A stretch of DNA of 64,000 nt from a virus, in IMG/VR virus record IMGVR_UViG_3300025120_010946, positions 1 to 64,000 of that record. One strand, written 5' to 3'. Below, piece after piece: positions 654 to 43,155 of this stretch. Numbering within the stretch: position 1 is the first letter of the stretch; every line of letters starts with the position of its first letter. Made by a program: the position numbers and the translations under genes. The notes under the pieces are model-generated. The model worked only from the letters and a program-made list of their open reading frames with translations. It was not told where the DNA came from and did not search any database.

Positions 654-1019
654 ATGCCATACATCGTAGGTGCCTTAACAAAAACAAACTTAGATATGAC
701 GGGAGGTATCGTTCGCTCTGGAGTGACGACAACTGCCACTACAAATGAGACTGCGATTATATCTCTTTCTGCGCCAAAATATCAATCTGTTGAGTTTAAT
801 GTGCAAGCAACTCAATCAAGTAGTTTTAATTCTACTATCGTTAAGGCAATGCATGATGGTTCATCAGCATATGTAACGGAATATGGAACACTTCAAGTTC
901 CATCAGGAATTGCTACTTTCTCTGCTGACTTGAGTGGAGGACAACTAAGACTTTTGGCGTATCCTTCATCTGCCGGTTTAACAACCTTTAGTGTAATCTA
1001 CACTGCATTGAACGCATGA
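654..1019 (+). CDS. Hypothetical virion-associated protein
   Basis: 121-aa T/S/G-rich ORF with a TEYG..IATFSADL pattern like tail-associated domains. Confidence 0.55.
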   Translation: MPYIVGALTKTNLDMTGGIVRSGVTTTATTNETAIISLSAPKYQSVEFNVQATQSSSFNSTIVKAMHDGSSAYVTEYGTLQVPSGIATFSADLSGGQLRLLAYPSSAGLTTFSVIYTALNA

Positions 1020-1354
1020 AAACATTTAAGGAGTTTATTCGAGAAGCAGCACCTACAAACTCTACTGGGAGTGGTGTTGATAATTATATTCCATATCTGT
1101 TTAAGAATGAAGATGATGATGATTTAACTCAAGATTATCAAACACCTGCTGAACCAGGTGAGGCAAAATTTAGATTTTCAAACATATATCCAGTTTTAAA
1201 ACTTTCATTATCCAATAGTCAAGGTGATGGACCTAGTATTGATCAAATGGTTCATGCTTCAAAAGAATATACGCAATTAATGGATAATAATACAATTCAA
1301 AGAATACGTGATAATATAAAAAGATTTCAAACTGAAAGAATTCAAGACAATTAA
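1016..1354 (+). CDS. Putative internal head protein with T4-like capsid-targeting N-terminus and gp23 N-arm-like segment
   Basis: Starts MKTFKEFIRE, then AAPTNSTGSGVDNYIPYL, which matches gp23 ATPTNSTGSAVDNFDPVL. Confidence 0.6.
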   Translation: MKTFKEFIREAAPTNSTGSGVDNYIPYLFKNEDDDDLTQDYQTPAEPGEAKFRFSNIYPVLKLSLSNSQGDGPSIDQMVHASKEYTQLMDNNTIQRIRDNIKRFQTERIQDN

Positions 1355-1366
1355 AGAATTGGATTA

Positions 1367-1373
1367 CTAAATA
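1367..1373 (+). promoter_or_regulatory. T4-type late promoter
   Basis: Intergenic CTAAATA about 30 nt before the ATG at 1404. Confidence 0.6.
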
Positions 1374-1403
1374 CATATTGATTATTCTAATCCTAGGTGT
1401 ATT

Positions 1404-1967
1404 ATGAAAACTTTAAAATATCTGGGAATAGGGTTAGGAGCGATAGTTGGTATTGCTCACATTGGTGTTCTAGGGCATTTAATATCGAGAAAAGATCACG
1501 TTCAACCACCTATCATTAATTTTCCTGCAGGTGATTACTCATCATATAAGGTAGAGGCAGGTAAAGAAGGTTACAGTATAGAATATAGAGCAAACGATCC
1601 TGCTATTCTTGAGTCACAAAAATCCTTATCATTAGATAAAACTAAGAGAGGATTATTTGGTGGTGGTAATGAAAGTCGTCGGGAGTGGCGCAAAGATCAA
1701 TACACTATGGATGGCACTAGGAATCTAGGAGGTGCTGTAGACGGCGAGGGAAAGTCTGCAAAAGACATAGAGTGTATCGTGGCGGACGCTGGAGCACGGA
1801 GTCAAGGTGCAATGGCGGGAAGTAGTATTGCTGCTGGAGTTGGTGTTCCTGCTGTGATTGGCATCCCATATGTTGGATGGTTAGCAGCTGGGTGGATGTC
1901 TTTGTTAGGACAGAATGTTGGATCTGAAGCAGGATCTATCGTCAACTCTGCAATTAGTGATTGCTAA
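1404..1967 (+). CDS. Hypothetical membrane-associated protein
   Basis: N-terminal hydrophobic helix and C-terminal Gly/Ala-rich hydrophobic segment. Confidence 0.65.
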   Translation: MKTLKYLGIGLGAIVGIAHIGVLGHLISRKDHVQPPIINFPAGDYSSYKVEAGKEGYSIEYRANDPAILESQKSLSLDKTKRGLFGGGNESRREWRKDQYTMDGTRNLGGAVDGEGKSAKDIECIVADAGARSQGAMAGSSIAAGVGVPAVIGIPYVGWLAAGWMSLLGQNVGSEAGSIVNSAISDC

Positions 1968-1970
1968 ATA
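1964..1970 (+). promoter_or_regulatory. T4-type late promoter
   Basis: CTAAATA overlapping the upstream stop, before the ATG at 1993. Confidence 0.6.
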
Positions 1971-1992
1971 ATATTAAGACTATTATTTTCTT

Positions 1993-3387
1993 ATGAAAAA
2001 ATGTCCAGCTGGACAGTATTACTGTTTTACTAGTAAGAAATGTAAAAAAATTCCCATGGGATATCATGTGGGTGGAAGGGGTATGCTTGAACCAGATACC
2101 GATACCAATAAAAAAGGTAATGGTAATGGCAATGGCAATGGTAACGGTGGCAATGGTAATGGTGCCGGTAACGGTGGCAATGGTAATGGTGCCGGTAACG
2201 GTGGTGGCGGTAACGGTGGTGGTATGGGAGAACAAGTAGTCCATGAAGGTGGTAACCTTCGTCAGTGGTTCAAAGGATCCAAATCAAAAGATGGTAAAGG
2301 TGGTTGGGTAAATGTCCGTACTGGCGGAACATGTGCAAGTGATGAACCTGGAGAGGGAACTCCTAAGTGTGTTTCTTCTGCAAAAAGAGCAAGTATGACA
2401 AAAGCAGAAAGAGATTCTGCTGCTAGAAGAAAAACAAAAGCAGATCCTGGACAACAACAAAAAACGGGTGCTGCTAAACCAACTTATGTAAAAACTGATA
2501 GTCCTAGAAAGATGAAGAACGAAGAAATCGAACTCATTCAAGAAAAGGACAAAAAAGGTAAAGGTAGTGGATCAAAAGACGCCTGTTACCACAAAGTAAA
2601 ATCTCGTTACAGTGTTTGGCCTAGTGCATATGCGTCAGGAGCACTAGTCAAATGTCGTAAGGTAGGCGCTGCAAACTGGGGAAACAAGTCTGAAGAACTT
2701 TCCTGGGATGAACTAACAGAGAAGTGCTGGCCTGGATACGAGAAAAAAGGAATGAAGACAATGTTTGGAAAAAGATATCCAAACTGCGTTAAAAAGAAAG
2801 CAACCAGAAAAGAGCAGGTTGAAGAAGCAGTAAGACTCCCCGCTAAAACTGGTAATATTATTGATGTAAATTTTGTCTTTAGAGGAAGAGGCTTCAGTCT
2901 TAAAATGTTCTTCCCTAAAGTAGGAATTCCAAGTAGATCTGATGTAATGGATCAGATCGATAAAGTATATCCTGGCGCAAAACTAACGTATTTCAGAGTC
3001 GCTGACTATGAACCAGGACAACCACTCCTCAGAGTTTCAGAAGAAACAGAAGACAAAAGAGGAGAAACTATTGCAGATTATGCAAATGACGGAAAAATAT
3101 CAGAAGGACAAATTGTGGATTCCGAGGGGGCACTAGGAGAGGGTGCTGCTTGGACTAAAAAGTCTGGTAAGAATAAAGAGGGTGGACTTAACGAAAAAGG
3201 GCGTAAGTCTTATGAAAGAGAAAACCCAGGTTCTGATCTTAAAGCACCATCTAAAAAGAAAGGAAACAAAAGAAGAGCATCATTCTGTGCAAGAATGAAA
3301 GGTATGAAAGCAAAACTAACTTCTGCCAAAACTGCAAGAGATCCAGATAGCAGAATTAACAAAAGTTTGAGAGCTTGGAACTGCTGA
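1993..3387 (+). CDS. Modular basic protein, probable internal head (poly)protein
   Basis: 464 aa; Lys/Cys-rich modules separated by acidic (L/I/V)xE junctions; Gly-Asn linker. Confidence 0.65.
   Translation: MKKCPAGQYYCFTSKKCKKIPMGYHVGGRGMLEPDTDTNKKGNGNGNGNGNGGNGNGAGNGGNGNGAGNGGGGNGGGMGEQVVHEGGNLRQWFKGSKSKDGKGGWVNVRTGGTCASDEPGEGTPKCVSSAKRASMTKAERDSAARRKTKADPGQQQKTGAAKPTYVKTDSPRKMKNEEIELIQEKDKKGKGSGSKDACYHKVKSRYSVWPSAYASGALVKCRKVGAANWGNKSEELSWDELTEKCWPGYEKKGMKTMFGKRYPNCVKKKATRKEQVEEAVRLPAKTGNIIDVNFVFRGRGFSLKMFFPKVGIPSRSDVMDQIDKVYPGAKLTYFRVADYEPGQPLLRVSEETEDKRGETIADYANDGKISEGQIVDSEGALGEGAAWTKKSGKNKEGGLNEKGRKSYERENPGSDLKAPSKKKGNKRRASFCARMKGMKAKLTSAKTARDPDSRINKSLRAWNC
2116..2223 (+). repeat. Gly-Asn low-complexity coding repeat including a 27-nt tandem duplication
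   Basis: GGTAACGGTGGCAATGGTAATGGTGCC at 2140-2166 and 2167-2193, partial third copy to 2204. Confidence 0.9.
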
Positions 3388-3394
3388 ATAAATT

Positions 3395-5041
3395 ATGCCT
3401 GATAATGTATACCTTGGTAATCCAAATCTAAAAAAAGCAAATACGCCGATTGAATTTACTGAAGAGCAAATCATTGAGTTTGTTCAGTGTCAGGATGATC
3501 CTGTTTATTTTGCCAATAAGTATGTAAAAATTGTTAGTTTGGATGAGGGACTTGTTCCTTTTACACCATATAAATTTCAAGAGAAGTTAATTCATAATTT
3601 TCATGAGAATAGATTTAACATCTGTAAAATGCCGCGACAGACTGGCAAAAGCACTACAGTTGTTTCTTATCTTCTTCATTATGCGATTTTCAATGCCAGT
3701 GTTAATATCGGCATACTTGCTAACAAAGCAGCAACTGCTAGGGAACTTTTAGGAAGATTACAAACTGCGTATGAGAATCTTCCTAAATGGATGCAGCAAG
3801 GTATTATGGTATGGAACAAAGGTTCTTTGGAGTTAGAAAATGGAAGTAAAATATTGGCAGCGTCTACGTCTGCAAGTGCTGTCCGAGGTATGTCATTTAA
3901 CATCCTCTTTCTCGACGAGTTCGCGTTCGTACCAAACCATATTGCTGACTCATTCTTTGCCTCTGTTTATCCTACTATTACTTCTGGTAAAAACACCAAG
4001 GTAATTATTGTTTCTACGCCACATGGTATGAATCACTTCTACCGCATGTGGAGTGATGCAGAGAAGGGTAGAAATGAATATCTACCTACTGACGTTCACT
4101 GGAGTGAAGTACCTGGTAGGGATGAAGCATGGAAAGAACAAACAATTGCAAACACATCTGATCAACAATTTAAAATTGAGTTTGAATGTGAATTCTTAGG
4201 ATCAATCGATACATTGATTGCTGCTAGTAAGTTGAGATCACTAGTATATGATGCTCCTATTATATCAAACGCTGGATTAGATGTATATGAAGAACCCCAA
4301 AAGGATCATGATTATGTTATGACTGTTGATGTAGCTCGTGGAGTTGGTGAAGATTATTCTGCTTTTGTATGTGTAGATATCACTTCTTTTCCACATAAAG
4401 TTGTGGCAAAATATAGAAACAATGATATAAAACCAATGTTATTTCCAAATATAATTTGGGAAGTGGCAAAGAAATATAATAGCGCATTTATTTTGTGTGA
4501 AGTAAATGATATTGGAGATCAAGTAGCATCACTACTTCATTACGATTTAGAATATCAAAATGTTCTTATGTGCTCCATGCGCGGCAGAGCAGGACAAGTT
4601 GTAGGACAAGGATTCTCTGGAAAAAAGACACAGTTAGGTGTCAAGATGTCCAAGACTGTTAAAAAAGTAGGATCTCTCAATCTAAAAGCAATGATTGAAG
4701 AGAACAAATTACTTTTTCATGATTTAGATATTATATCAGAACTAACCACCTTCATATCAAAACATAATTCATTTGAAGCAGAAGATGGATGTAATGATGA
4801 TTTAGCAATGTGCCTTGTAATTTATGCATGGTTGGTTGCACAAGACTATTTTAAAGAACTTACTGATCAAGATATTAGAAAGAGATTATATGAAGAACAA
4901 AAGAATCAGATAGAACAAGACATGGCACCATTTGGATTTTTAAATGATGGTTTGGATGATGATAGTTTTGTTGATGGTGATGGAGATAGATGGACAACAG
5001 CAGAATATGGAGATCGTTCATACATGTGGGAGTATAGATAA
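3395..5041 (+). CDS. gp17: Terminase large subunit
   Basis: YLGNPNLK N-terminus, Walker A PRQTGKST, Walker B LFLDEFAF, nuclease DVARG and DDLAM motifs. Confidence 0.98.
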   Translation: MPDNVYLGNPNLKKANTPIEFTEEQIIEFVQCQDDPVYFANKYVKIVSLDEGLVPFTPYKFQEKLIHNFHENRFNICKMPRQTGKSTTVVSYLLHYAIFNASVNIGILANKAATARELLGRLQTAYENLPKWMQQGIMVWNKGSLELENGSKILAASTSASAVRGMSFNILFLDEFAFVPNHIADSFFASVYPTITSGKNTKVIIVSTPHGMNHFYRMWSDAEKGRNEYLPTDVHWSEVPGRDEAWKEQTIANTSDQQFKIEFECEFLGSIDTLIAASKLRSLVYDAPIISNAGLDVYEEPQKDHDYVMTVDVARGVGEDYSAFVCVDITSFPHKVVAKYRNNDIKPMLFPNIIWEVAKKYNSAFILCEVNDIGDQVASLLHYDLEYQNVLMCSMRGRAGQVVGQGFSGKKTQLGVKMSKTVKKVGSLNLKAMIEENKLLFHDLDIISELTTFISKHNSFEAEDGCNDDLAMCLVIYAWLVAQDYFKELTDQDIRKRLYEEQKNQIEQDMAPFGFLNDGLDDDSFVDGDGDRWTTAEYGDRSYMWEYR

Positions 5042-5271
5042 TGGATCTTGATGGACAAATTAAACTTGGACATCTGCTCCTTAATGATAGAAAATGTAGA
5101 GTTTGTGGAGAAACAAAAAATCTTATAGAGGGATATTACAGAACTAGAAAGGATAGAGGAGCAGTTGCTTCATCATATTCATATGAATGTAAGGATTGTA
5201 CTATTAAAAGAATAGTGAGTAGTAGAAAGAAACAAACACTATTTGTAGATTATACTTATCCAGATTGGTAG
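5041..5271 (+). CDS. Small Zn-finger protein (like the N-terminal domain of EndoVII/HNH nucleases)
   Basis: CRVC...ECKDC motif, 76 aa, no catalytic domain visible. Confidence 0.6.
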   Translation: MDLDGQIKLGHLLLNDRKCRVCGETKNLIEGYYRTRKDRGAVASSYSYECKDCTIKRIVSSRKKQTLFVDYTYPDW

Positions 5272-5308
5272 TTCACGTCTCATTTCCCCGATGAAAATAC
5301 TTTTAATT

Positions 5309-5315
5309 CTAAATA
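5309..5315 (+). promoter_or_regulatory. Late promoter for gp18
   Basis: Intergenic CTAAATA upstream of the tail sheath gene. Confidence 0.7.
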
Positions 5316-5347
5316 TCTAAAGATAAACTGAGACAACGGAGAAAAAA

Positions 5348-7549: not shown

Positions 7550-7583
7550 TTTTAAGATACAATAAACACGGAGGACACAACTA

Positions 7584-8243: not shown

Positions 8244-8248
8244 ATCAG

Positions 8249-8255
8249 ATAAATA
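8249..8255 (+). promoter_or_regulatory. Late promoter for gp20
   Basis: Intergenic ATAAATA. Confidence 0.6.
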
Positions 8256-8281
8256 GTCAAATAAAAGACTACTAATAAATC

Positions 8282-9949: not shown

Positions 9950-9952
9950 ATA
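9945..9952 (+). promoter_or_regulatory. Late promoter (full T4 consensus)
   Basis: TATAAATA overlapping the gp20 stop. Confidence 0.75.
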
Positions 9953-9980
9953 AAACATAGTAAGTAAATTGACTATTCAC

Positions 9981-10214: not shown

Positions 10215-10777
10215 TGGCACATCGCACAGTTGGTGTCGGACAAAGTATTGCTACAGGTAGCACTAATCAAAAAAGTGCTGCTATTGCAGTAAAATCAAAC
10301 GTTTTAAGAATTACCGCAAGAGGTGGTGATGCTCACGTTGCAATTGGTACTGAACCAGTAGCAGCTGAAACCGATTATCTTATTCCTGCTGGAACAAGTG
10401 AAACTCTGGGAATTACTAAAGCTTCTCAAAGAGTTAGAAGTGTTGAAACGTTAGGCACAAAAACAATTGTCACTTGTCCTGAGGGCACTCAACAACCATT
10501 TGGTGTTGGTGATTGCGTAAGTCTTGAGACAAATCTTGCAGATAGCAACTGGGCGACGATAATTAATCATGTTGGGGTAGATTCTATTGATCAAACAGCA
10601 GATTATGATGGATCTTTTAGTACTAGAGTTACCCTAAGTGCTAATACTGGCACCATTTCTACAGCGTTTTCTGATAATGACGCTACTCTTCGTAGATCGA
10701 TCAAAGTAGGTGCTGTTTCACCTGATAATGCTGGATCTATTTTCGTTCAACAAGTACAAATTACCGGAGTAGCCTGA
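10214..10777 (+). CDS. Hypothetical virion protein
   Basis: 187-aa ORF translationally coupled between the gp67-like gene and gp21. Confidence 0.65.
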   Translation: MAHRTVGVGQSIATGSTNQKSAAIAVKSNVLRITARGGDAHVAIGTEPVAAETDYLIPAGTSETLGITKASQRVRSVETLGTKTIVTCPEGTQQPFGVGDCVSLETNLADSNWATIINHVGVDSIDQTADYDGSFSTRVTLSANTGTISTAFSDNDATLRRSIKVGAVSPDNAGSIFVQQVQITGVA

Positions 10778-11427
10778 TGAAACTTATCAGAGAAGAAATC
10801 GAATCAGTCGAATTTCTTGTAGAATCAAAGAACGGCAAGAAATCAATGTATATTGAGGGGATTTTCCTTCAAGGAAACATTAAAAACCGTAATGGTAGAA
10901 TGTATCCTATGGAAACTCTTCGTAGAGAAGTTGGTAGATACAATGAAAATAATGTTCAAGCAGGTAGAGCACTTGGTGAACTTGGACATCCTGATGGACC
11001 TACTGTCAATCTAGATCGAGTATCTCATAAAATTGTTTCTCTAAGAGAATCTGGTTCTAACTTTATCGGTAAAGCAAAAATTCTTAGCACTCCTATGGGT
11101 AAAATTGCATCTTCTCTTATAGGAGAAGGTGTAAAGCTTGGTGTTTCTTCTCGTGGAATTGGATCTTTAAAAATGACAAGAGAAGGTGTTAACATAGTCG
11201 GTGACGATTTTATGTTGGCAACTGCTGCTGATATCGTTGCTGATCCTTCTGCACCTGATGCTTTCGTTGAAGGCATTATGGAAGGTAAGGATTGGGTATG
11301 GGATGGTGGTATTCTTCGTGAGAGGTATGCCGATAAAACATATAGAGAAATTAACACTCTAGTCACCCAAAAACAACTCGATGAAAAGAAATTAGATCTT
11401 TTCAACGATTTTCTTAATAATATCTGA
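10777..11427 (+). CDS. gp21: Prohead protease
   Basis: MKLIRE start, NRNGRMY, ALGELGHP, GVSSRGIGS, DIVADPSAPDA. Confidence 0.97.
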   Translation: MKLIREEIESVEFLVESKNGKKSMYIEGIFLQGNIKNRNGRMYPMETLRREVGRYNENNVQAGRALGELGHPDGPTVNLDRVSHKIVSLRESGSNFIGKAKILSTPMGKIASSLIGEGVKLGVSSRGIGSLKMTREGVNIVGDDFMLATAADIVADPSAPDAFVEGIMEGKDWVWDGGILRERYADKTYREINTLVTQKQLDEKKLDLFNDFLNNI

Positions 11428-11452
11428 TATTAAGTATAAAATTTATTAATAC

Positions 11453-11463: not shown

Positions 11464-11498
11464 TAGTTTTAAAAAAACGGAAACGGAGCTGTTCAAAA

Positions 11499-12587
11499 AT
11501 GTCTCGTGGTACAAAATTACAAGAAATGGAAGTAGGCAATGTAAAGCAGTCCAAAACTGCTGCTAACGCTAACGCTAAGCCTGGCGATTCTATGCCCACT
11601 CTGTCCGGAGCAACTCCTGGACAGTCTGGTACATATGAAGATCTCGGAGGTCCTACCCCTGAGAACTATAAGCCTGATGATGATTCTGCCAAGTTAAACA
11701 TACCTGGCAAAACCCTCAAGCAAGTTAAGGACGTAGTAAACGCAAAAGCCAAACCTGCCATGGCAGCTCCTGCCGAGGAAGTAGAAACTGACGAACCCAT
11801 TATCGAAGAAGAATCAGTAACTGATGAAGTAGTATCTGAAGAAGAAACTACCGAAACTGTTGCTGAGTATAACGTCGAAGAAGATGTTAATGCTCTTCTC
11901 AGTGGTGAAGAACTCACCGAAGAATTCAAAGAAAAGGCAAAAACCATCTTTGAAGCAGCAATCACTGCTAAGGCTGCTTCCATTGAGGAAGCAATCGAAG
12001 CTAAGTACGCTGCTGCACTTGCTGAAGAAGTTGCCTTAGCAAAAGAATCACTCGCTGAGCGTGTAGATTCTTATCTTGAGTATGTCTCTGACGAGTGGTT
12101 TGAAGAAAACGCACTTGCCATTGAGAACGGACTCAAGACTGAAATGACTGAATCATTCCTTGAAGGAATGAAGGGTCTTTTTGAAGAACATTATGTATCA
12201 ATTCCTGAAGAAAAATATGATGTGCTTAACAGCATGGTAGAAAAACTTGATGATATGGAGACAAAACTCAACGAGCAAATCGAGAAAAATATTGCCCTGA
12301 ATGGCAGACTCAGTGAGTCTGTTGCAGACGGTATTCTTGATGAAGTTTCTGAAGGACTCGCGTCTACTCAGAAGGAGAAGCTCGCCTCACTTTCCCAAAG
12401 TGTAGAGTTTGAAAGTGAACAATCTTATCGTGAAAAGCTAGGAACACTTAAGGAATCTTATTTCCCTAAGAACAATGCTCCTGCTGCTAAAACTGAAACA
12501 CTGTCTGAAGGTGAAACCCATGATCATCAGCAATATACTGATACCATGAGTTCATATCTCAGATCTCTGGGAACTTTTAGCAAATGA
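11499..12587 (+). CDS. gp22: Prohead scaffold protein
   Basis: Acidic coiled coil; FKEKAKTIFEAA, VDSYLEYV; located between gp21 and gp23. Confidence 0.95.
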   Translation: MSRGTKLQEMEVGNVKQSKTAANANAKPGDSMPTLSGATPGQSGTYEDLGGPTPENYKPDDDSAKLNIPGKTLKQVKDVVNAKAKPAMAAPAEEVETDEPIIEEESVTDEVVSEEETTETVAEYNVEEDVNALLSGEELTEEFKEKAKTIFEAAITAKAASIEEAIEAKYAAALAEEVALAKESLAERVDSYLEYVSDEWFEENALAIENGLKTEMTESFLEGMKGLFEEHYVSIPEEKYDVLNSMVEKLDDMETKLNEQIEKNIALNGRLSESVADGILDEVSEGLASTQKEKLASLSQSVEFESEQSYREKLGTLKESYFPKNNAPAAKTETLSEGETHDHQQYTDTMSSYLRSLGTFSK

Positions 12588-12632: not shown

Positions 12633-14033
12633 ATGTTCCATTCCGAGCATCTGCAGGAAAAGTGGGCACCCCTTCTTGAGTATGATGGACTTGACTCCAT
12701 CAAGGATCCTCATAGAAAGGCTGTAACTGCCGTCCTGCTTGAAAACCAAGAAAAATTTCTGAAGGAGTCTTCCTCCTTTGAGACTGGTGGATCCCTCCTA
12801 AGTGAGGCTACTCCTACCAACTCAACAGGTAGCGCCGTAGATAACTTCGATCCCGTTCTGATCTCTTTGATCAGACGCTCAATGCCTAACCTGATCGCAT
12901 ATGATCTGGCTGGCGTCCAACCAATGAGTGGACCTACTGGACTCATCTTCGCGATGCGTTCCCGTTATGCCAATCAAACCGGAAACGAAGGATTCTACAA
13001 CGAACCCGATTCCGCATGGAGTGGACAGAACTTCGGTCGTAACCTTACTGGTGGTTTCTCTGATACCGCCGCTGGTATGGGTACTACCGCTCAGGCTGGC
13101 AACAACCCTGCACTCCTGAACCCCACCTCCTCCGCTAACACTAGTGGTGGTGGAACCGACGCTTATAACGTTGGACAAGGCATGACAACTGCCGAGTCTG
13201 AAGCACTCGGAGATGCAGATCAGAACGCCTTCAATCAGATGGCTTTCTCTATTGAGAAAGTTACTGTAACTGCTAAGTCCAGAGCACTGAAAGCAGAATA
13301 CAGCCTTGAGCTTGCTCAAGACTTGAAAGCGATCCATGGACTGAACGCTGAAGCGGAACTCGCCAACATTCTCTCTACTGAGATTCTGGCTGAGATCAAC
13401 CGCGAAGTGATCAGAACCATCTACAAGGTTGCTGAGCAAGGTGCTGTACAAAACGTCGCACAATCCGGTGTATTCGATCTAGACATCGATTCCAACGGAC
13501 GCTGGAGCGTTGAGAAGTTCAAAGGACTTCTGTTCCAAATCGAAAGAGATGCTAACGCGATTGCACAAAGAACTCGTAGAGGAAAGGGCAACACGATCCT
13601 TTGTTCTGCTGACGTTGCTTCTGCACTCACCATGGCTGGTGTACTTGATTACACCCCTGCTCTTAACGCCAACCTCACCGTTGACGACACCGGTAACACC
13701 TTCGCTGGTGTTCTCCAAGGTAAGTATCGTGTATATATCGATCCTTATTCTGCTAACCTTACCTCAGGTAATCAGAGCCCAGGTAACCAGTACTACGTCG
13801 TAGGATACAAGGGATCTTCCCCTTATGACGCTGGACTGTTCTATTGCCCATATGTTCCCCTTCAAATGGTTCGTGCCGTTGGAGAGGACACCTTCCAGCC
13901 TAAAATCGGATTCAAGACTCGTTACGGCATGGTTGCGAATCCCTTCGCTGAAGGCACCCAGGCACAACTCGGCGCTCTTAACATCAACGCCAACCGTTAC
14001 TACAGACGTGTTGCAGTTAAGAACCTCATGTGA
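12633..14033 (+). CDS. gp23: Major capsid protein
   Basis: FDPVLISLIRRSMPNLIAYDLAGVQPM, KSRALKAEY, YDAGLFYCPYVPL. Confidence 0.99.
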   Translation: MFHSEHLQEKWAPLLEYDGLDSIKDPHRKAVTAVLLENQEKFLKESSSFETGGSLLSEATPTNSTGSAVDNFDPVLISLIRRSMPNLIAYDLAGVQPMSGPTGLIFAMRSRYANQTGNEGFYNEPDSAWSGQNFGRNLTGGFSDTAAGMGTTAQAGNNPALLNPTSSANTSGGGTDAYNVGQGMTTAESEALGDADQNAFNQMAFSIEKVTVTAKSRALKAEYSLELAQDLKAIHGLNAEAELANILSTEILAEINREVIRTIYKVAEQGAVQNVAQSGVFDLDIDSNGRWSVEKFKGLLFQIERDANAIAQRTRRGKGNTILCSADVASALTMAGVLDYTPALNANLTVDDTGNTFAGVLQGKYRVYIDPYSANLTSGNQSPGNQYYVVGYKGSSPYDAGLFYCPYVPLQMVRAVGEDTFQPKIGFKTRYGMVANPFAEGTQAQLGALNINANRYYRRVAVKNLM

Positions 14034-33036: not shown

Positions 33037-33049
33037 TTTTTAATTTATT

Positions 33050-35785: not shown

Positions 35786-36270
35786 TGGATAGACTCCAAC
35801 TTAAAATTGAAGCAAACTCACCTTATAATGATGGGTGGACTAAAGAATTTTATCGCGAACAATTAAAAAAGAAAACTATGAACAATTACACTGAATTTGT
35901 TAAGCAAACTACCAGTGCTCCAAGTCTTGATTATGCAGTCATGGCAAATCGATTGGCAGAACTTGAAGCGAATGGAGTTAATACTACTCAACTCTTAACT
36001 GCTGCTCTTGGGTTATCTGCAGAAGCAGGTGAGTTTACTGAAGTTGTAAAGAAGATTGTTTTTCAGGGTAAACCTTATAGTGAAGATAATGTCTTTCATA
36101 TGAAACGTGAACTGGGTGATATCTGTTGGTATCTTGCTCAAGCATTCATGGCATTGGACACCAACTTTGATGAGATTCTTGATATGAATATTGAGAAACT
36201 CTCTGCTAGATATCCTGAGGGAACTTTTGATGCGTATTATTCTGAAAACCGTAAGGAAGGTGATGTCTGA
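35785..36270 (+). CDS. mazG: MazG-like NTP pyrophosphohydrolase
   Basis: GLSAEAGEFTEVVKK, ELGDICWY, NIEKLSARYP. Confidence 0.92.
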   Translation: MDRLQLKIEANSPYNDGWTKEFYREQLKKKTMNNYTEFVKQTTSAPSLDYAVMANRLAELEANGVNTTQLLTAALGLSAEAGEFTEVVKKIVFQGKPYSEDNVFHMKRELGDICWYLAQAFMALDTNFDEILDMNIEKLSARYPEGTFDAYYSENRKEGDV

Positions 36271-36389
36271 TGGATAGTGCAGTTCATGCATGGAATACTA
36301 TGAGTTACGGAGAAGGATTTCTTTTCTCCGTTTGGTTATTGGGAATGTATTTTATTAAACTAAAAATGGATCAGAGGTTTGGAAGATGA
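36270..36389 (+). CDS. Small membrane protein (39 aa, not in ORF track)
   Basis: MDSAVHAWNTMSYGEGFLFSVWLLGMYFIKLKMDQRFGR; coupled at both ends. Confidence 0.55.
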   Translation: MDSAVHAWNTMSYGEGFLFSVWLLGMYFIKLKMDQRFGR

Positions 36390-36580
36390 ATATTAAATTA
36401 GGACTGCGTGAAGCAGCAGCACTCAGGCAGTCTTTGTATCTTCAAACTAAAGATGACTCTTTCGAATTTCCTTCTGAACGTGTCAGAGAATTGAGAGGAA
36501 TAATTTTAAAACTTGACTCTGAAATTGAAGTAGAACTTGAAAAACAACAGGACACTAAAGATGAAACTACTAACACTTGA
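36386..36580 (+). CDS. Hypothetical protein
   Basis: 64-aa coupled ORF. Confidence 0.55.
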   Translation: MNIKLGLREAAALRQSLYLQTKDDSFEFPSERVRELRGIILKLDSEIEVELEKQQDTKDETTNT

Positions 36581-36785
36581 GGATTATCAAAAGGCTGGAG
36601 AAACGTTCTGGCCTAAGTATTGGTACGTATCTAAAGAACTTGGTGAAAATGCAAAACCAGAACAAGTTCTTAAAGTTATGGAAGCAGTCGGTGGACTTGC
36701 GTTAAAACTTGCTCTAGAGCAAAAAGAAAAAGAAGGTCCATTCGGATTTAATAAAAAGAAGGAAGATGATTCAGACAGCAACTGA
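36561..36785 (+). CDS. Hypothetical protein
   Basis: MKLLTLEDYQKAGETFWPKYWY; ATG 36561. Confidence 0.65.
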   Translation: MKLLTLEDYQKAGETFWPKYWYVSKELGENAKPEQVLKVMEAVGGLALKLALEQKEKEGPFGFNKKKEDDSDSN

Positions 36786-37017
36786 CAGAATAGAAGTACC
36801 AGAAGGTGCTAACTTGATTGATGATGTTTTTTATGTTTGGAAAACTAGGTATGGATTGTATTCGTCAATGACTAAGCAAGGTCGTCATATGATGACTGGT
36901 GCTACCGAAGATGGTGTTACTGTATTGACACGTTGGCACCTTAAGTGTGAGCAAGATGGTACGTTAGAACAATATACTAGAGTTGTTGGTGATTCTTTTG
37001 TTGGAGTAAAACTCTAA
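36766..37017 (+). CDS. Hypothetical protein
   Basis: 83-aa ORF. Confidence 0.6.
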   Translation: MIQTATDRIEVPEGANLIDDVFYVWKTRYGLYSSMTKQGRHMMTGATEDGVTVLTRWHLKCEQDGTLEQYTRVVGDSFVGVKL

Positions 37018-37020
37018 ATA
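37014..37020 (+). promoter_or_regulatory. Late promoter
   Basis: CTAAATA 9 nt before the ATG at 37030. Confidence 0.55.
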
Positions 37021-37029
37021 GTTAAAAAA

Positions 37030-38208
37030 ATGGCTACTGGTGTAAAGGAAGGTAGTATAATCGAAGGGATCATGGCGATGTATATTGCCATGATCTTTGC
37101 TGACCCTGATGATGGGGAGAACATGCAAAAAGTAAAATCAAATATAAGTAAACTTAGAAAAGAAACAGTATTGTTGGAGAACATTAAACCAAGAATTGGT
37201 ATCAAAAGATTGTTCCCCCAAGATGATCCATTGGGATATGAAATTGCCCCTGGTAATAGTAATCTCAATCCTAACATGTCTAATGGGCAACCATATTTTA
37301 TTCAGCAGAGAGGTGATAATCCTGCCGATTACATTCAAGTTGGATTGGAAGTTTATCTCAAACCTGCAGAAGTTTATCCTGGATTTGGTGATGAATATTC
37401 TAAGTATGTTGAAGAAAAAAGAGATTATGGAAAATTAGCAAAAAAAGTAGATAATCTAATTGCGTCTAGAGGATCTATTCTTTTTAGAAGACTAATCATC
37501 GCAAAGAAAAAATTTCTTTTAAATAAAGAAACTGATGTCATAAGGTATAATGTTTTAGCTGACGGAGTAACCGGAGAGCAAGCAGATGGTAATGTCAAAG
37601 CGGATATCATTGTAACTATTTTTGCTAATGGGCGAGAATTAATTAAAGATCAAATCAATATCTCTGTCAAGAGCGACTCATCAACTGTTGCCAACCTTGG
37701 AGTCATTAAAGGTTTGGAAGCAATGTATTCAGTCATTTCTCCCAGAGGAAAAACAGCAGTAAAAGCAAATACATTATTGGCAAATATTAAGGCTGCCAAA
37801 AGAGATGCGAAACTTCAATATGTTTCTGCATTATTTGAATTACTTTCTGATAATTTAGTTAATAGTGATGATCCAAAATTTACTGATAGAGCTTTTAATT
37901 TTATAGAGGAAGCGATCTTTGGAGATGATATGGCACAGGTTGTTGATGTAAAATCCTCTGGTGGTAAAGTAAAAGAAATGCAACCAGGACAATTTGCAGC
38001 GTATAGAAAATATGGAGATAAAGGGAAACCAATTAAATTGGTTGCAAAGAAAATGGCAGGTGATATTAGAATAATGCCAAAAGGAGAATCTAATAGTAAT
38101 AATTTTATTTTTAAATTTAGATTTAAGAAAAGAAACTATAAAGATGGATCGGGACAATATGTAGATAAAATTATGATTGAGACAGGCAAACTCACTTACG
38201 CTAAATAA
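37030..38208 (+). CDS. Hypothetical protein, possible PD-(D/E)XK nuclease fold
   Basis: N-terminal helix EGIM, then KADII...ISVKS. Confidence 0.5.
   Translation: MATGVKEGSIIEGIMAMYIAMIFADPDDGENMQKVKSNISKLRKETVLLENIKPRIGIKRLFPQDDPLGYEIAPGNSNLNPNMSNGQPYFIQQRGDNPADYIQVGLEVYLKPAEVYPGFGDEYSKYVEEKRDYGKLAKKVDNLIASRGSILFRRLIIAKKKFLLNKETDVIRYNVLADGVTGEQADGNVKADIIVTIFANGRELIKDQINISVKSDSSTVANLGVIKGLEAMYSVISPRGKTAVKANTLLANIKAAKRDAKLQYVSALFELLSDNLVNSDDPKFTDRAFNFIEEAIFGDDMAQVVDVKSSGGKVKEMQPGQFAAYRKYGDKGKPIKLVAKKMAGDIRIMPKGESNSNNFIFKFRFKKRNYKDGSGQYVDKIMIETGKLTYAK
38201..38207 (+). promoter_or_regulatory. Late promoter
   Basis: CTAAATA upstream of the ATG at 38230. Confidence 0.6.
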
Positions 38209-38229
38209 GATATAGGAAATCATATATAA

Positions 38230-39519
38230 ATGAAAAGTTTCTTCCAGTTCCTTAGTGAAGCGGAATCACAAGCTGCAACACAGGCGAGAAAACTTGGACT
38301 AAAGGGCGACGGACATGGCGGTTGGTTAAATCGTTCTGGGGAGTTTGTTGCTAAAACAGAAGATGGTAAATTAAAATTCTTTAATAAAAATCAGAAACCA
38401 GGTAAAGATCCAGATCAAACTCCAAATACAAAGAAAGTAACTCCGGTTCTCAAGACAAAAACAATGTCTGTGAACAAAGAACCACAAAGTAAAAAGAAAG
38501 GTGGTGAAGAGGAGACTGGTGGTGAAAAAAAGGCAAATAGTGATACCCTCACTCTTGCTTTTGGTAGATTTAATCCTCCTACCGTAGGGCATGAAAAATT
38601 ATTTCAGATGGCTAAGAGAACATCTGAGGGTGGAGATTTAAAAATTTACCCATCTAGGACACAAGACGCGAAGAAAAATCCTCTTGATGCTGACATGAAA
38701 GTTTCTTATATGAAAAAAATGTTCCCTGACTTTGAAGAGAACATTATTAATGATGACGAGATGCGATCTATTTTTAATGTACTTCAAACTGCTGATGGTG
38801 AATATAAAAATGTAAATATCATTGTTGGATCTGATCGTCAATCAGAGTTTGAAAGTCTTGCTACAAAGTATAATGGTGAGTTGTATAATTTTGATAACAT
38901 CCGTGTTGTTTCTGCTGGAGCAAGAGACTCTGACGCTGATGGTGTGGAGGGAATGTCTGCATCAAAGATGAGAAAAGCAGTAATTGATGATGACTATGAA
39001 GAATTTAAAAAAGGAGTTCCTAAGTCAGTTGCTGATGCTGATACACAATCACTATATGATGCAGTTCGTTCAGGAATGAAAATTAAGAAACAAAAAGTCA
39101 CTGCTGAAATGTGGGAGATTGCTCCTAAGTATGATCAAAGGGGATTAAGAGAACAATATGTAAATGGATTTATTTACAAAATGGGTGACATTGTTGAAAA
39201 TCTTAATACCGGATTGATTGGTAAGATTATTCGTAGAGGGACAAATCATCTTATTTGTGTGACTGAGCAAGAATATATGTTTAAATCTTGGATTCGTGAT
39301 GTAATGGAATACACTGAGAAGTCTATGAATAGAAGAATGAGATTGCCTGGAAAACCCAACACCCTTATTGGAACTGGTGGATATTACAAAACTGCTGTTG
39401 CAGCAACTCCAGGATCTCAAGAGGGAGCAAAAAATGTTGCTCCTGGTGGGAAAGTATATAACGGATATTCTAATTCTCTTAAGTTCATAAATAAGTACAA
39501 AGCTAAAAGTAGTAGATAG
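38230..39519 (+). CDS. Cytidylyltransferase-like (HIGH-superfamily) nucleotidyltransferase
   Basis: FGRFNPPTVGHEKL, IVGSDR, GMSASKMR. Confidence 0.85.
   Translation: MKSFFQFLSEAESQAATQARKLGLKGDGHGGWLNRSGEFVAKTEDGKLKFFNKNQKPGKDPDQTPNTKKVTPVLKTKTMSVNKEPQSKKKGGEEETGGEKKANSDTLTLAFGRFNPPTVGHEKLFQMAKRTSEGGDLKIYPSRTQDAKKNPLDADMKVSYMKKMFPDFEENIINDDEMRSIFNVLQTADGEYKNVNIIVGSDRQSEFESLATKYNGELYNFDNIRVVSAGARDSDADGVEGMSASKMRKAVIDDDYEEFKKGVPKSVADADTQSLYDAVRSGMKIKKQKVTAEMWEIAPKYDQRGLREQYVNGFIYKMGDIVENLNTGLIGKIIRRGTNHLICVTEQEYMFKSWIRDVMEYTEKSMNRRMRLPGKPNTLIGTGGYYKTAVAATPGSQEGAKNVAPGGKVYNGYSNSLKFINKYKAKSSR
39487..39493 (+). promoter_or_regulatory. Late promoter
   Basis: ATAAATA about 30 nt before the ATG at 39522. 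Confidence 0.55.
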
Positions 39520-39521
39520 CC

Positions 39522-41030
39522 ATGCCTAATGGAATCGGTAAGAACCCCCTTGATGATATTTCAAAGGTATACTTACAAACTGTGCGTGAATCTTACAAAG
39601 TAGAACCACCTCAGGAGAAGTTAAAAACTGATCGTGATATGTTCAATATCCCTAAGGATGAACAGAAAGCTGCTAAAGAACGTTTGTTAGCGAAGGCTGC
39701 TGCTAAACGTGAAAAGATGAAAGTGGAAGCACTTGATCCTGTAGGTAAAGAAGATGGTGATGTTGATAATGATGGAGACAAAGATAAATCAGATAATTAT
39801 TTGTTAAAACGTCGTAAGGCAATTGCCAAAGCGATGAAAACTCGTAAGGAAGAGATTGAAGTTGAAGAGGGTTTCAAGGAACTCTCAAGAGATAAGAGAA
39901 ACAAGATGTTCCGTAAGGCAGGTAACCTGTCACGTACAGCACTACAAGGTGGTGATGAAGGAACTGAGGCAGGCAAAAAATCTGGTAAGATTGTCAAGGC
40001 ACTGAACAAGGATGCTGAAAAGAATAATAGAAATGATGTGAAGAATGAGGAAGTTGAGCAGGTAGATGAGAATCGTCGTGCTGCCGCCGCTGCTGGTGGA
40101 TATAAGGATGACTCCAAGAAACAGACTGATCCTTCTAAGGATGGGTTCACTGGTATCTCTGGTAGCATCAAAGATATTATGAGACAAAATAAAGAGATTG
40201 AAAAAAGAAATAAAATGAAGAAGGAAAGTTACTCCAGTTGGAGGAATGATCTTCGTGAAATAATGGATGATGAAGAAAGTGGTAAAAAAATTAAAGAGAA
40301 GAAAGTAAAAAATAAAGTAATCATCAACCCTAAACTTGGAGAAGCAATACAAGAAATTGGTGGCACTCTGATTGAGTCAATCAAAGAAGAAGATTTTGAT
40401 GATATTGTTGAAAGTGTTTATCTTGAATTAATTGGTGAAGGATATTCAAATGATGATGTTGAAGAGGCGATTGAGTTTGCTCTAACTGAACAACTTAATG
40501 AAGTAAGTGATAGTTACTATGATTCTGCTGTAAAAACATCTAAAGATGCAGATGCTAAGAATAAAAGAGCGGAAATGATGAAGAGAGTTAAAGGACGCCT
40601 TAAATTTATGAAGAGAAGGGCTGGAGAAGTTGCTGGTAATGTTAAAAAGAAAGCTGCCACCGCAGCAGTTGATGTTGCCTTCGCTGCCGATGCAGCAAAG
40701 GACAAGGTAAAGAGTGCTGCCTCTACTGCTAAGAAGAGAGTTGCTGATGCACCCAAAGTTGCTAAAGCAGGTATCAAGAGTAGAATTAAAAAAGCAGCAT
40801 TGGGCGTTGCAAAACGCATGGGTGAAGAGACTGAAGATTCCTTGAAAGATCGTCGCATGGAACGTGGTGGTGTTGACGGCAACAACCGTTACAAGAGTGC
40901 TACTAAAAATGTTGCTATGGGTGGTGGAAAGAAAAAACCCTATGATGGTATGTCTGCACTTGAGAAAGTAAAGGCAAGCATCCGTGCCAAGCATGGACAG
41001 GGTGCTATCATGGATACCAAGAAGAAGTAA
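39522..41030 (+). CDS. Charged modular protein, probable internal head protein
   Basis: 502 aa, K/E/D-rich, DGDVDNDGD motif, many (L/I/V)xE junctions. Confidence 0.6.
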   Translation: MPNGIGKNPLDDISKVYLQTVRESYKVEPPQEKLKTDRDMFNIPKDEQKAAKERLLAKAAAKREKMKVEALDPVGKEDGDVDNDGDKDKSDNYLLKRRKAIAKAMKTRKEEIEVEEGFKELSRDKRNKMFRKAGNLSRTALQGGDEGTEAGKKSGKIVKALNKDAEKNNRNDVKNEEVEQVDENRRAAAAAGGYKDDSKKQTDPSKDGFTGISGSIKDIMRQNKEIEKRNKMKKESYSSWRNDLREIMDDEESGKKIKEKKVKNKVIINPKLGEAIQEIGGTLIESIKEEDFDDIVESVYLELIGEGYSNDDVEEAIEFALTEQLNEVSDSYYDSAVKTSKDADAKNKRAEMMKRVKGRLKFMKRRAGEVAGNVKKKAATAAVDVAFAADAAKDKVKSAASTAKKRVADAPKVAKAGIKSRIKKAALGVAKRMGEETEDSLKDRRMERGGVDGNNRYKSATKNVAMGGGKKKPYDGMSALEKVKASIRAKHGQGAIMDTKKK

Positions 41031-41230
41031 TGCCTGCCGTATCAAAGGCACAGCAAAGGTTTATGGGTATGGTTTATGCCACCAAGAAAGGTGACATGAC
41101 TAACCCTTCTCCTGAGGTTGCCCAAGCAGCAGCATCCATGAAGAAGAGTGATGCGAAAGACTTTGCATCAACTAAGCATAAAGGACTTCCTAAAAAGAAA
41201 TCTCTTAAGGAGTTTTTAGAGAATATATAG
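41030..41230 (+). CDS. Small basic protein
   Basis: MPAVSKAQQRFMGMV...DFASTKHKGLP...SLKEFLEN. Confidence 0.7.
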   Translation: MPAVSKAQQRFMGMVYATKKGDMTNPSPEVAQAAASMKKSDAKDFASTKHKGLPKKKSLKEFLENI

Positions 41231-41251
41231 TATTAGTAATTGAGATTTACC

Positions 41252-41452
41252 ATGCTTGCATTTTTACTTCCCTTGGCATCAAAAATTATTACTGATGCTA
41301 TTAATAAAATTCCTGAGAATGAAGAACTCGGTGAGAAAATGGTTGAGATCTGTCTTGTTATTCTTGCTAAGGCAGTTAAGTTAACCAAGACTGATATGGA
41401 TGATCAACTCTTAGAAGTTGTAACAAAGGCGATTAAATCGAGAGAAGAATAA
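41252..41452 (+). CDS. Conserved small hypothetical protein
   Basis: MLAFLLPLASK...LTKTDMDDQLL; ATG 41252. Confidence 0.65.
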   Translation: MLAFLLPLASKIITDAINKIPENEELGEKMVEICLVILAKAVKLTKTDMDDQLLEVVTKAIKSREE

Positions 41453-41454
41453 AT

Positions 41455-41462
41455 TATAAATA
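41455..41462 (+). promoter_or_regulatory. Late promoter (full T4 consensus)
   Basis: TATAAATA. Confidence 0.75.
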
Positions 41463-41495
41463 TCTTATAGCAAATAAATTATCGGCAGTTAAGAC

Positions 41496-42557
41496 ATGGC
41501 ACTCTGGGGCAATAAAGACAATATCACTGCAACAGGTAGAGTTACCTTGGATTATCAAACCGGTATTGTCACCGGTTCTAACTTAGAAGATCAAGGTAAT
41601 GGTACAAAGTTTGGTGAGACAGGTGAAGTTCAAGAAGGAGACATTATCCGTTTCGGTGTAATCGATAAACCTGGCGTTTATATGGGAGATGCTGTTGTTG
41701 TCTCTGTTGCCGGTACTACATCTCTCACTATTGGTTCCACTATGGGACTTGATGGTGTTGCTATTGGAAGAACCACATTCCAGGTTTCTCAGGCACCTAA
41801 ATCCACCGTTCTTGATCGTTCCTTTAGTGAGGACGATAATATCAATGATGGCGCACCAACGCTTGTTAACGAAATTATTAAAACAGCAAACTCTGCAACA
41901 GCAACCACAGGTGTAGGCGCATCTATTCTTGATGTTAAAACTACTCTCTTATCAACTGGTGGTGTTAAGGTTGGCGACTTCATCGTAAATGATGGAAATA
42001 ACATCAAAATCATTGGTGTAGGAACTGCTACCTTCCACGCTAACTTTAATAGTGGCATCGGTTCTGATAGAATTTTCGTTAATGGTACAGTTCCTGGTTT
42101 AGATACTGACAGTCTTATTCATAATTCTAATGGTAATCAACTCCTTGGTGTAACTGGTGTTGGTGCAACGTTCTTTACCATCGATCCTGTGTTAACGGCT
42201 GGCATTGCCACCAATGGCACTCTCCTTTTGGACTCCTTTGTTGATCAAGTATTTGCGTTTGATCATCACTTCGCTATTGGGCTTGAAAGTAATATCACTG
42301 CTGCTATTAGCGCAGGTGATGCTATCCAAGTTAAGAGACAAAAAGGTGGATACTCTAGAAATGTCTATGGTGTAGGCAAAACTGGAGTAGAAGACGCTGC
42401 TGGAGGTGTATATGAAACTAGTGCTGGATGGGTTGGTATTACAACCTACATAGACACTGAGGGTAACCTTAGAGTTAAGAGTGAAGTTCTGGTTGCCATG
42501 TCTGGCATCTCTACCGGTAACGTTCCTTCTTATCCCAATATTGAAAACGCTAACTGA
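41496..42557 (+). CDS. Virion structural protein
   Basis: MALWG N-terminus, G/T-rich beta content, AGWVGITTY...SEVLVAMS C-terminus; late promoter. Confidence 0.7.
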   Translation: MALWGNKDNITATGRVTLDYQTGIVTGSNLEDQGNGTKFGETGEVQEGDIIRFGVIDKPGVYMGDAVVVSVAGTTSLTIGSTMGLDGVAIGRTTFQVSQAPKSTVLDRSFSEDDNINDGAPTLVNEIIKTANSATATTGVGASILDVKTTLLSTGGVKVGDFIVNDGNNIKIIGVGTATFHANFNSGIGSDRIFVNGTVPGLDTDSLIHNSNGNQLLGVTGVGATFFTIDPVLTAGIATNGTLLLDSFVDQVFAFDHHFAIGLESNITAAISAGDAIQVKRQKGGYSRNVYGVGKTGVEDAAGGVYETSAGWVGITTYIDTEGNLRVKSEVLVAMSGISTGNVPSYPNIENAN

Positions 42558-42566
42558 TAGGATGTA

Positions 42567-42953
42567 ATGTTATTTAATGAGTTGAATTCGGAGAATTTTC
42601 TCCTCTTTGCAATTAAAAATTATGAAAATCCTCAGGCTGTAACAAGAGAAGATTTTGATAAAGATTTGAATCACTTTAAATATATTAAACGGTTGCTTAA
42701 ACGATATAAGTCAACTGGTGAATTAAAGACACATCTTCTCTTAAATCATTTTATTGTTCTTTACAATATTTTTGGTGAAGCAACAACTCCTATGTTATTT
42801 TATAAAATTGATGAGCAGGAACTTTGGGGTTGTCTTAAAACATTTGTATTGTTTTTAGATAAATTACCAGATTATCCACAAACCTATATTCATGATTTGA
42901 ATATAGATGAAAATTGTATGGAAAAACTTATTTTCTTTCACAATGAACAGTAA
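42567..42953 (+). CDS. Conserved hypothetical protein of T4-like phages
   Basis: FLLFAIKNYENP...FKYIKRLL...LLNHFIVLYNIFG. Confidence 0.75.
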   Translation: MLFNELNSENFLLFAIKNYENPQAVTREDFDKDLNHFKYIKRLLKRYKSTGELKTHLLLNHFIVLYNIFGEATTPMLFYKIDEQELWGCLKTFVLFLDKLPDYPQTYIHDLNIDENCMEKLIFFHNEQ

Positions 42954-43155
42954 ATCAGTAGATAAATTTTTATATCTTTTTAGAGAGATGATGGGTGCTG
43001 GTGCCTCTGGAGGTGCTCCTACTAATAATGTTGGTGATGGTAAGATCGCTGGTACTGCAGAGGCAGGCGATGATCCTCCTGTAAATTTGAAAAAGAAAAA
43101 AAGAAAACCTACTCCTGTAGGAAGATACGGTACACGTAGAACGTGGCGTAGATAA
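42943..43155 (+). CDS. Small protein with APTN motif and basic tail
   Basis: LFRE-MMGAG...APTNNVGDGKIAG...DDPPV-KKKKRK; ATG 42943. Confidence 0.65.
   Translation: MNSKSVDKFLYLFREMMGAGASGGAPTNNVGDGKIAGTAEAGDDPPVNLKKKKRKPTPVGRYGTRRTWRR

Follow-up and report, generated by a model that had tools for sequence, protein, structure and literature searches.

A T4-type capsid targeting sequence marks candidate prohead cargo in a T4-like cyanomyophage contig

The principle of loading proteins into the phage head through a capsid targeting sequence (CTS) has been known in T4 for decades. The T4 CTS reads MKTYQEFIAE; targeting depends on its positions 4 and 7, processing on its positions 8 and 10. gp21 of T4 cleaves after (L/I)-x-E, and both gp21 itself and Alt undergo C-terminal processing (PMC9026906). 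In giant phages such as SPN3US, according to the relevant passages of PMC7411985 and PMC5694885, the prohead protease processes many of the proteins inside the head, and these pass into the host cell. Three virion proteome papers list enzymes and 'hypothetical' proteins among the components of purified cyanophages, two of them leaving true packaging undecided, and we found no open-access paper linking the CTS to cyanophages. Here we examined the first 64 kb (64,000 nucleotides, hereafter the window) of IMG/VR virus record IMGVR_UViG_3300025120_010946, a 78-kb contig of a T4-like cyanomyophage with a G+C content of 37%, whose closest deposited relatives are S-SM2, Bellamy, SynMITS9220M01 and S-SCSM1. 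An earlier note on this DNA had proposed that a set of dispersed late genes carries T4-style targeting signals and gp21 cleavage sites. We found that two open reading frames (ORFs, named by start position), ORF1016 and ORF38230, begin with a T4-type CTS, and that several further putative late genes have shared modules, cut-site-like junctions or a gp21-like tail.

The two tags agree with the T4 CTS at positions 4, 7, 8 and 10, and in both the next residue is Ala. The strings that had been singled out on the contig were all present: MKTFKEFIREA opens ORF1016 (1016-1354), MKSFFQFLSEA opens ORF38230 (38230-39519), KSLKEFLENI ends ORF41030 (41030-41230), and ORF42943, which is listed from 42907, gives MNSKSVDKFLYLFRE from its Met13 at 42943. 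Six-frame translation of the whole contig yielded three matches to the pattern xKx[FYW]xx[FYW][ILVM]xE. Two are the starts of ORF1016 and ORF38230, and the third is out of frame, leaving only two gene starts in the contig that bear the motif. In addition, a degenerate DNA pattern for the motif was run against five reference genomes of cyanomyophages. Each of its five matches was a gene start on the forward strand, whereas control patterns matched nowhere in the same five genomes. Four of these tags belong to the nucleotidyltransferase of S-SM2, S-SCSM1, Syn9 and S-SM1, and the fifth to S-SCSM1 gp030, a protein of 106 amino acids (aa) encoded directly upstream of the terminase; ORF1016 is similarly located a few genes upstream of gp17. 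Orthologues of the nucleotidyltransferase retain the tag down to 44% identity, with the exception of S-PM2, whose enzyme has a different N-terminal extension and no tag. For Bellamy gene 170 (L001:6001-6048), the start was deposited 16 codons downstream of the proper one, so that the annotated protein lacks the tag MKSLFQFLNE. The N-termini predicted to follow the cut are AAPTNSTGSGVDNYIPYLFK for ORF1016, AESQAATQAR for ORF38230 and ATPTNS... for gp23. The presence of the CTS is thus confirmed, far beyond chance.

We then asked how widely the exact tag occurs in viral contigs. A peptide scan placed MKTFKEFIxE at the start of at least 118 IMG/VR loci, whereas the same codons in reversed residue order occurred at none. 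Among the matches listed, to which all counts in this paragraph refer, 120 tagged proteins reach 40 aa or more, and they represent 43 unrelated families. An S-AdoMet lyase family is the largest, with 27 of the 120, and another is an ART-PolyVal ADP-ribosyltransferase. The DNA encoding the tag takes 77 distinct 30-mer forms in 121, with all codons used at synonymous positions; since these codons vary freely, selection acts on the peptide and not on the RNA. Ala (40), Ser (32) and Glu (18) are the residues found most after Glu10. T4-like core genes accompany the tag on 69 of 118 loci, and TAAATA lies no more than 60 nt upstream in half of the tagged genes (60/120), compared with 2.9% of random 60-mers. 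With at least 118 loci, 43 families and an empty reversed control, the decapeptide is portable in the manner of a T4-type CTS. Fit at the functional positions, conservation on orthologues and portability therefore bear out the N-terminal T4-type CTS that the earlier note had assigned to ORF1016 and ORF38230. By eye, the tagged products also include a P-loop protein and a family with YGPGLYGN...GVAHK (IMG/VR loci L111, L031 and others).

The setting of the tags is that of a T4-like head-assembly region. Genes follow the T4-like order gp17 terminase (3395), gp18 (5348), gp19 (7584), gp20 (8282), gp21 (10777), gp22 (11499) and gp23 (12633); replication genes then extend to about 37 kb, and a late block at 37030-43155 sits before primase gp61 (43543) and NrdA. 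A gp21-family protease and a gp22 scaffold are thus encoded in the same genome as the tags, as in the CTS/gp21 systems. gp22 holds 15 [LI]xE sites against 6.9 expected, and gp21 is likewise enriched. The maturation cut of gp23 is predicted after LLSE58, within an FL(S/Y)E↓xPT motif (↓, predicted cut) that is kept in relatives. The published cyanomyophage late-promoter motif is NATAAATA (PMC2984593), and late-promoter-like TAAATA motifs were indeed found where late promoters had been claimed for ORF1993, ORF38230 and ORF39522, 22, 22 and 28 nt upstream, respectively. The form xxTAAATA also precedes gp18, gp20, gp22, ORF37030 and ORF41496. On the plus strand, 14 of the 27 [AC]TAAATA occurrences fall within 60 nt upstream of a plus-strand ORF start, a space that makes up 7.5% of the window. 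ORF1016 has no promoter motif of its own and overlaps the upstream ORF (ATGA).

These genes can be compared with the internal proteins of T4. In both cases the decapeptide is aromatic at positions 4 and 7 and has I/L at 8 and Glu at 10, with Ala or Ser as the next residue; the genome also encodes a gp22 scaffold and a homologue of gp21; late-promoter-like motifs are present; and the tag is portable over unrelated mature domains. Unlike in T4, the genes are dispersed rather than clustered, the mature parts have no detectable homology to the T4 internal proteins (no Pfam or PHROG link), and the putative cargo extends to an enzyme of 429 aa and to long proteins of several modules. The ejection and inner-body proteins of the SPN3US type, as the passages cited above describe them, differ more, with another protease motif, other proteins and no decapeptide tag.

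The tagged enzyme, ORF38230, begins with the CTS and a basic linker that runs to about residue 100; a catalytic core spans about residues 103-285, and a small beta domain completes the layout. Its sequence includes the motifs FGRFNPPTVGH and MSASKMR. The core (103-285) was modelled at pLDDT 72-92 with an HxGH nucleotidyltransferase fold. Foldseek matched the model to NMNAT (2qjo, 9fyb) and PPAT (5ts2, 1o6b) equally well, at TM 0.6-0.7 normalised to the target. Curated NMNAT models scored far below their cut-offs (TIGR00482, 17.8 bits against 112; TIGR01526, 16.6 against 341), and searches of Pfam and of PDB sequences gave no match. BLASTP aligned the protein over its full length, same N-terminal tag included, with the S-SCSM1 NMNAT (ORF91) at 59% identity.

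Homologues of five proteins of the window have been detected in virions. For S-SCSM1, the record and PMC9602691 list gp029, gp282, NMNAT ORF91, gp280, gp279 and gp277 as detected by mass spectrometry (MS) in CsCl-purified virions. With BLASTP, ORF1993 matches gp029, which lies upstream of the terminase, at 51% over the full length; ORF39522 matches gp280 at 49% over 218 aa; ORF41030 matches gp279 at 84%; and ORF41496 is homologous to gp277. For S-SM1, the virion peptide counts in Table S8 of PMC3037559 are 25 for T4-GC190 (cytidyltransferase) and 13 for T4-GC119, compared with 18 for the portal and 8 for gp21. By the S-SM2 annotation, T4-GC119 is the ORF1993 family. Additionally, the S-CREM2 paper speaks of 'frequent detection' of cytidyltransferases in cyanophage virions (PMC10665884). 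ORF38230 is orthologous to the enzymes S-SCSM1 ORF91, S-SM1 T4-GC190 and S-CREM2 ORF154 described in these three papers. Their passages on virion proteins report detection without a loading mechanism and leave true packaging open, and the CTS found here would supply such a mechanism.

Matches to PHROG families revealed modules common to ORF1993, ORF38230, ORF39522 and ORF41030. Two of these proteins are long and basic, with a net charge of +39 for ORF1993 and +23 for ORF39522, against a proteome that is net acidic. ORF1993 ends in DUF6321 (Pfam, 79.9 bits against a gathering threshold of 28.5), and its alignment with S-SCSM1 gp029 and SSM2_109 shows about six conserved blocks with variable linkers between them. 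It has five [LI]xE sites against 1.7 expected, most of them at module borders, and at four of five junctions all three aligned sequences keep hydrophobic-x-Glu with G, A, S or K as the next residue. The modules also occur as separate tagged proteins. In stand-alone CTS-DUF6321 proteins of 95 aa, the first mature residue aligns with residue 385 of ORF1993, just past LGE383; in 58 short DUF6321 proteins, Glu precedes the module in 58/58, and 47/58 have V, I, L, M or F at P3, irrespective of the upstream sequence. S-SCSM1 gp030 likewise consists of the tag and a module found within ORF1993 after VEE↓AVRLPAKTGN.

The leader of ORF39522, MxNGIGKNPLxDISKVYL..phi-x-E (MSNGIGKNPLNDISKVYL..phi-x-E; phi, hydrophobic), is conserved within one family of variable module content and was rejected as a portable tag, as it heads this family only. 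The C-terminal module of ORF39522 has homologues in a stand-alone CTS family of 70 aa, and in the alignment the tag falls on 'AKRMGEE'. ORF39522 has 10 [LI]xE sites against 4.6 expected, and 10/10 fall in an acidic stretch at residues 246-327, which looks more like scaffold than linker. The proposal that both proteins are strings of basic modules split by (L/I/V)xE junctions thus fits ORF1993, with its excess of sites mostly at borders, and the basic charge of both; as to junctions it fits ORF39522 in part, some of its junctions agreeing with phi-x-E while all its [LI]xE sites lie in that one acidic stretch. At about residues 69-85 of ORF39522 (39726-39776), DPVGKEDGDVDNDGDKD is conserved in all four homologues compared and looks like a DxDxDG calcium-binding loop.

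Behind its tag, ORF1016 resembles the major capsid protein of its own genome. After the predicted cut at LLSE58, gp23 reads ATPTNSTGSAVDNFDPVL (12807-12860), and 13 of these 18 residues recur in ORF1016; all other proteins in the window share 8/18 or fewer. The codon is identical at only 4 of the 13 shared residues. In S-SM2, the counterpart pair SSM2_108 and gp23 (L002:3501-3929 and L132:3351-4754) reads FLKE↓TPTNSVGNGGYTSAGGQTVAGYD and MIAE↓QPTNAVGNGGYTSSGGQTVAGFD, respectively. When arms from the window and from S-SM2 were aligned, the cognate pairs scored z 9.8 and 16.7, whereas the cross pairs were at background. This points to capsid-arm mimicry in ORF1016 and SSM2_108 that co-varies with each phage's own gp23. 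Because ORF1016 copies the arm of its own gp23 and the copy co-varies, it may be a capsid-associated or structural protein and not an effector.

For the small basic protein ORF42943, homologues align only from the Met at 42943, and relatives in other phages (L036, L129, L056 and L067) bear the canonical MKTFKEFIxE tag. What would link it to the gp23 arm is a short APTN motif together with the tag on these relatives. Its slot in S-SCSM1, two genes upstream of the primase, is occupied by gp275 (61 aa; L012:9122-9307), which is annotated 'major head protein'.

A different motif was found at C-termini. ORF41030 matches DUF3008 (Pfam, 32.6 bits against a gathering threshold of 24), and the KSLKEFLENI-type tail recurs at the end of DUF3008 proteins that range from 66 to 275 aa and contain differing inserted modules, and of a few proteins with another N-terminus. 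Cyanomyophage gp21 ends in an KLNLFNEFLSNL-type tail, with L-D/E-E always 13 residues from the end (L021, L035, L045, L073 and L132), and a core phi-x-E-F-L/I is common to the gp21 tail, the DUF3008 tail and the N-terminal tag. On account of the likeness to the gp21 tail, the shared core and the C-terminal processing of gp21 and Alt in T4, we infer from sequence that the tail of ORF41030 and gp21 may be a C-terminal core-binding element. The motif in ORF41030 had been counted among the T4-type CTSs, which was not upheld: it is a conserved C-terminal tail resembling that of gp21, and not an N-terminal sequence. Like T4 Alt and gp21 (PMC9026906), the present set would thus comprise a head-carried enzyme and propeptides at the C- as well as the N-terminus. 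Unlike Alt, the enzyme is an HxGH nucleotidyltransferase and not an ADP-ribosyltransferase, and the role of the C-terminal tail is suggested by likeness only.

We consider loading into the prohead followed by cutting by gp21 to be the best explanation for these genes, and a probable one. The genes would be transcribed late from NATAAATA/CTAAATA-type promoters. The decapeptide MK-T/S-F-x-x-F-I/L-x-E of ORF1016 and ORF38230 would bind the assembling scaffold core, and the tagged proteins would be enclosed once gp23 closes the shell. gp21 would then cut after Glu10 of the tag, and would also cut the hydrophobic-x-Glu junctions of ORF1993 and ORF39522 to free small basic modules. The DUF3008 protein ORF41030 probably enters by way of its gp21-like C-terminal tail. 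The processed proteins would stay in the DNA-filled head, and at least some would be expected to exit with the DNA at infection.

Several points weigh against this explanation. The contig is uncultured, and virion presence is known from orthologues alone. Carry-over of abundant non-virion proteins through CsCl is possible, as the authors of two of the MS papers acknowledge. The Syn9 nucleotidyltransferase is tagged, yet it was undetected in Syn9 virion MS. ORF1993 and its homologues have neither a CTS nor a conserved leader; the invariant Glu before DUF6321 could be domain-borne rather than a cut site; the ORF39522 junction before ALDPVGKEDGD has no consistent phi-x-E; and ORF42943 was rejected as a gp23-arm mimic, the local alignment being insignificant (z 2.6 and 2.9). 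Ejection into the host would be an extrapolation from T4 only, and delivery as an effector is plausible for the nucleotidyltransferase. S-PM2, in which the enzyme has no tag and is undetected, was considered as a natural control and is undiagnostic, because the tagged Syn9 enzyme is undetected too.

The alternative that survives best accepts loading and cutting and takes the proteins to be assembly or structural parts, namely core or scaffold proteins that replace T4 gp67 and gp68, rather than injected effectors. In a variant, their role would be to condense DNA as basic peptides or to line the capsid, and they would be degraded, expelled or kept in the head. Cyanomyophages are without gp67, gp68 and gp24 (PMC2984593), the stretch 246-327 of ORF39522 is acidic, helical and dense in [LI]xE like gp22, ORF1016 carries its co-varying copy of the gp23 N-arm, and ORF1993 and ORF39522 are strongly basic, all of which would suit such parts. 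The tagged nucleotidyltransferase, however, is an enzyme with no obvious assembly role; the same tag elsewhere heads S-AdoMet lyase and ADP-ribosyltransferase, typical host-directed enzymes; and orthologues of the polyproteins are still detectable in mature virions. We regard this alternative as unlikely for these genes, while for ORF1016 and the basic polyproteins a role in structure or as scaffold is a live rival. The claim that the phage packages a defined set of effectors accordingly stands in part: tags, protease, scaffold and MS-detected orthologues support a packaged set, whereas 'effectors' would be a putative label, ORF1016 being possibly structural and ORF39522 looking in part scaffold-like.

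We find it very improbable that the N-terminal motif serves another purpose, such as an oligomerisation helix, a partner-binding helix or a translation-initiation context, with the MS detections being carry-over of abundant late proteins and nothing being specifically packaged. The MS papers themselves raise carry-over, and the undetected Syn9 enzyme would agree with it. However, the free variation of synonymous positions argues against an RNA role; the same peptide heads 43 unrelated families among the matches listed, and Ala, Ser or Glu nearly always comes next, as it does at cut sites in T4; at the functional positions it agrees with the CTS defined by experiment in T4; and two independent MS studies found the same two families, with T4-GC190 peptide counts above those of the portal. 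Chance likeness of short AT-rich N-termini to the T4 tag, for which the shortness of the motif and the G+C content of 37% might speak, is refuted by the zero counts of the reversed-order and reference-genome controls and is next to inconceivable, the in-frame motif within the contig being confined to gene starts.

Two further genes belong to the late block. ORF37030 occupies a variable slot upstream of the nucleotidyltransferase. It has no Pfam, NCBIfam or PHROG match, and its AlphaFold model (pLDDT 69) gave no PDB match with Foldseek and only helical bundles at Z <7 with VIA-align. The idea that it is a restriction-endonuclease-like cargo was dropped, the Atlas lead being weak (RE_HaeIII 24% and RE_HpaII 12% of cluster members). 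The slot in relatives (L012:3459-4793, L013:3412-4731 and L001:4680-5978) holds proteins of about 390-440 aa that are mutually unrelated by BLAST; by eye, all of them, ORF37030 included, have an 'aDIxV ... (I/V)S(L/V)K' pair. ORF41496 contains no [LI]xE site; it is probably a structural protein on the outside of the virion and not cargo of the head. Outside the block, about 12 consecutive plus-strand ORFs lie at 52168-63406, and several have GxxGxxG starts typical of NAD-dependent sugar epimerases/dehydratases, which suggests a sugar-modification cluster.

Table 1 Features of the candidate cargo system and its head-assembly genes, with positions in the window.
Feature	Position	Strand	Remarks
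ORF1016, 112 aa	1016..1354	+	canonical CTS, then a copy of the gp23 mature N-terminal arm
CTS MKTFKEFIRE of ORF1016	1016..1045	+	predicted gp21 cut after Glu10
ORF1016 segment AAPTNSTGSGVDNYIPYL	1046..1099	+	13/18 identical to gp23 residues 59-76, after predicted gp23 cut
Late-promoter-like GCTAAATA	1963..1970	+	22 nt upstream of ORF1993
ORF1993, 464 aa	1993..3387	+	about six conserved modules, C-terminal DUF6321; orthologue of S-SCSM1 gp029, family T4-GC119
gp21 prohead protease	10777..11427	+	Pfam Peptidase_S77, E 1.7e-34
gp21 C-terminal tail KKLDLFNDFLNNI	11386..11424	+	preceded by LDE
gp22 scaffold	11499..12587	+	Pfam T4_CASP, E 2e-78
gp23 major capsid protein	12633..14033	+	Pfam Gp23, E 3.8e-152
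ORF37030, 392 aa	37030..38208	+	TCTAAATA 9 nt upstream; variable slot, S-SCSM1 occupant gp282 is a virion protein
Late-promoter-like GCTAAATA	38200..38207	+	22 nt upstream of ORF38230
ORF38230, 429 aa, CTS-tagged HxGH nucleotidyltransferase, NMNAT/PPAT-like fold	38230..39519	+	cyanophage core family T4-GC190
CTS MKSFFQFLSE of ORF38230	38230..38259	+	T4 CTS match
Late-promoter-like CATAAATA	39486..39493	+	28 nt upstream of ORF39522, within 3' end of ORF38230
ORF39522, 502 aa	39522..41030	+	conserved leader, shuffled modules; orthologue of S-SCSM1 gp280
ORF41030, DUF3008 protein, 66 aa	41030..41230	+	84% identical to S-SCSM1 gp279
ORF41030 C-terminal tail KSLKEFLENI	41198..41227	+	sequence
ORF41496, late virion protein	41496..42557	+	TATAAATA upstream; homologue S-SCSM1 gp277 'tail fiber protein'
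ORF42943, small basic protein, 70 aa	42943..43155	+	leader ending FRE, then APTN motif

Compared with the internal proteins and CTS of T4, the notable variations are the polyproteins, the C-terminal tails and an enzyme cargo that cyanomyophages have conserved. We offer, tentatively and with more doubt than confidence, a wider view in which T4-like marine phages would use a 'cargo grammar' of N-terminal CTS, protease-copying C-terminal tail and hydrophobic-x-Glu joints. Small basic modules and enzymes could then move freely between polyproteins and genes of their own, with loading, cutting and delivery preserved. Its flagship would be a pre-made NMNAT/PPAT-like nucleotidyltransferase that might act in the first minutes of infection, for example by restoring NAD-type cofactors against depletion-based defence. 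For the 'non-structural' proteins found in cyanophage virions, a T4-type tag and protease-cut joints provide a concrete, testable mechanism. They also allow virion cargo to be predicted by a sequence rule, straight from metagenomic contigs, and in related contigs the cargo so predicted comprises, among others, a protein of the S-AdoMet lyase family and an ADP-ribosyltransferase.

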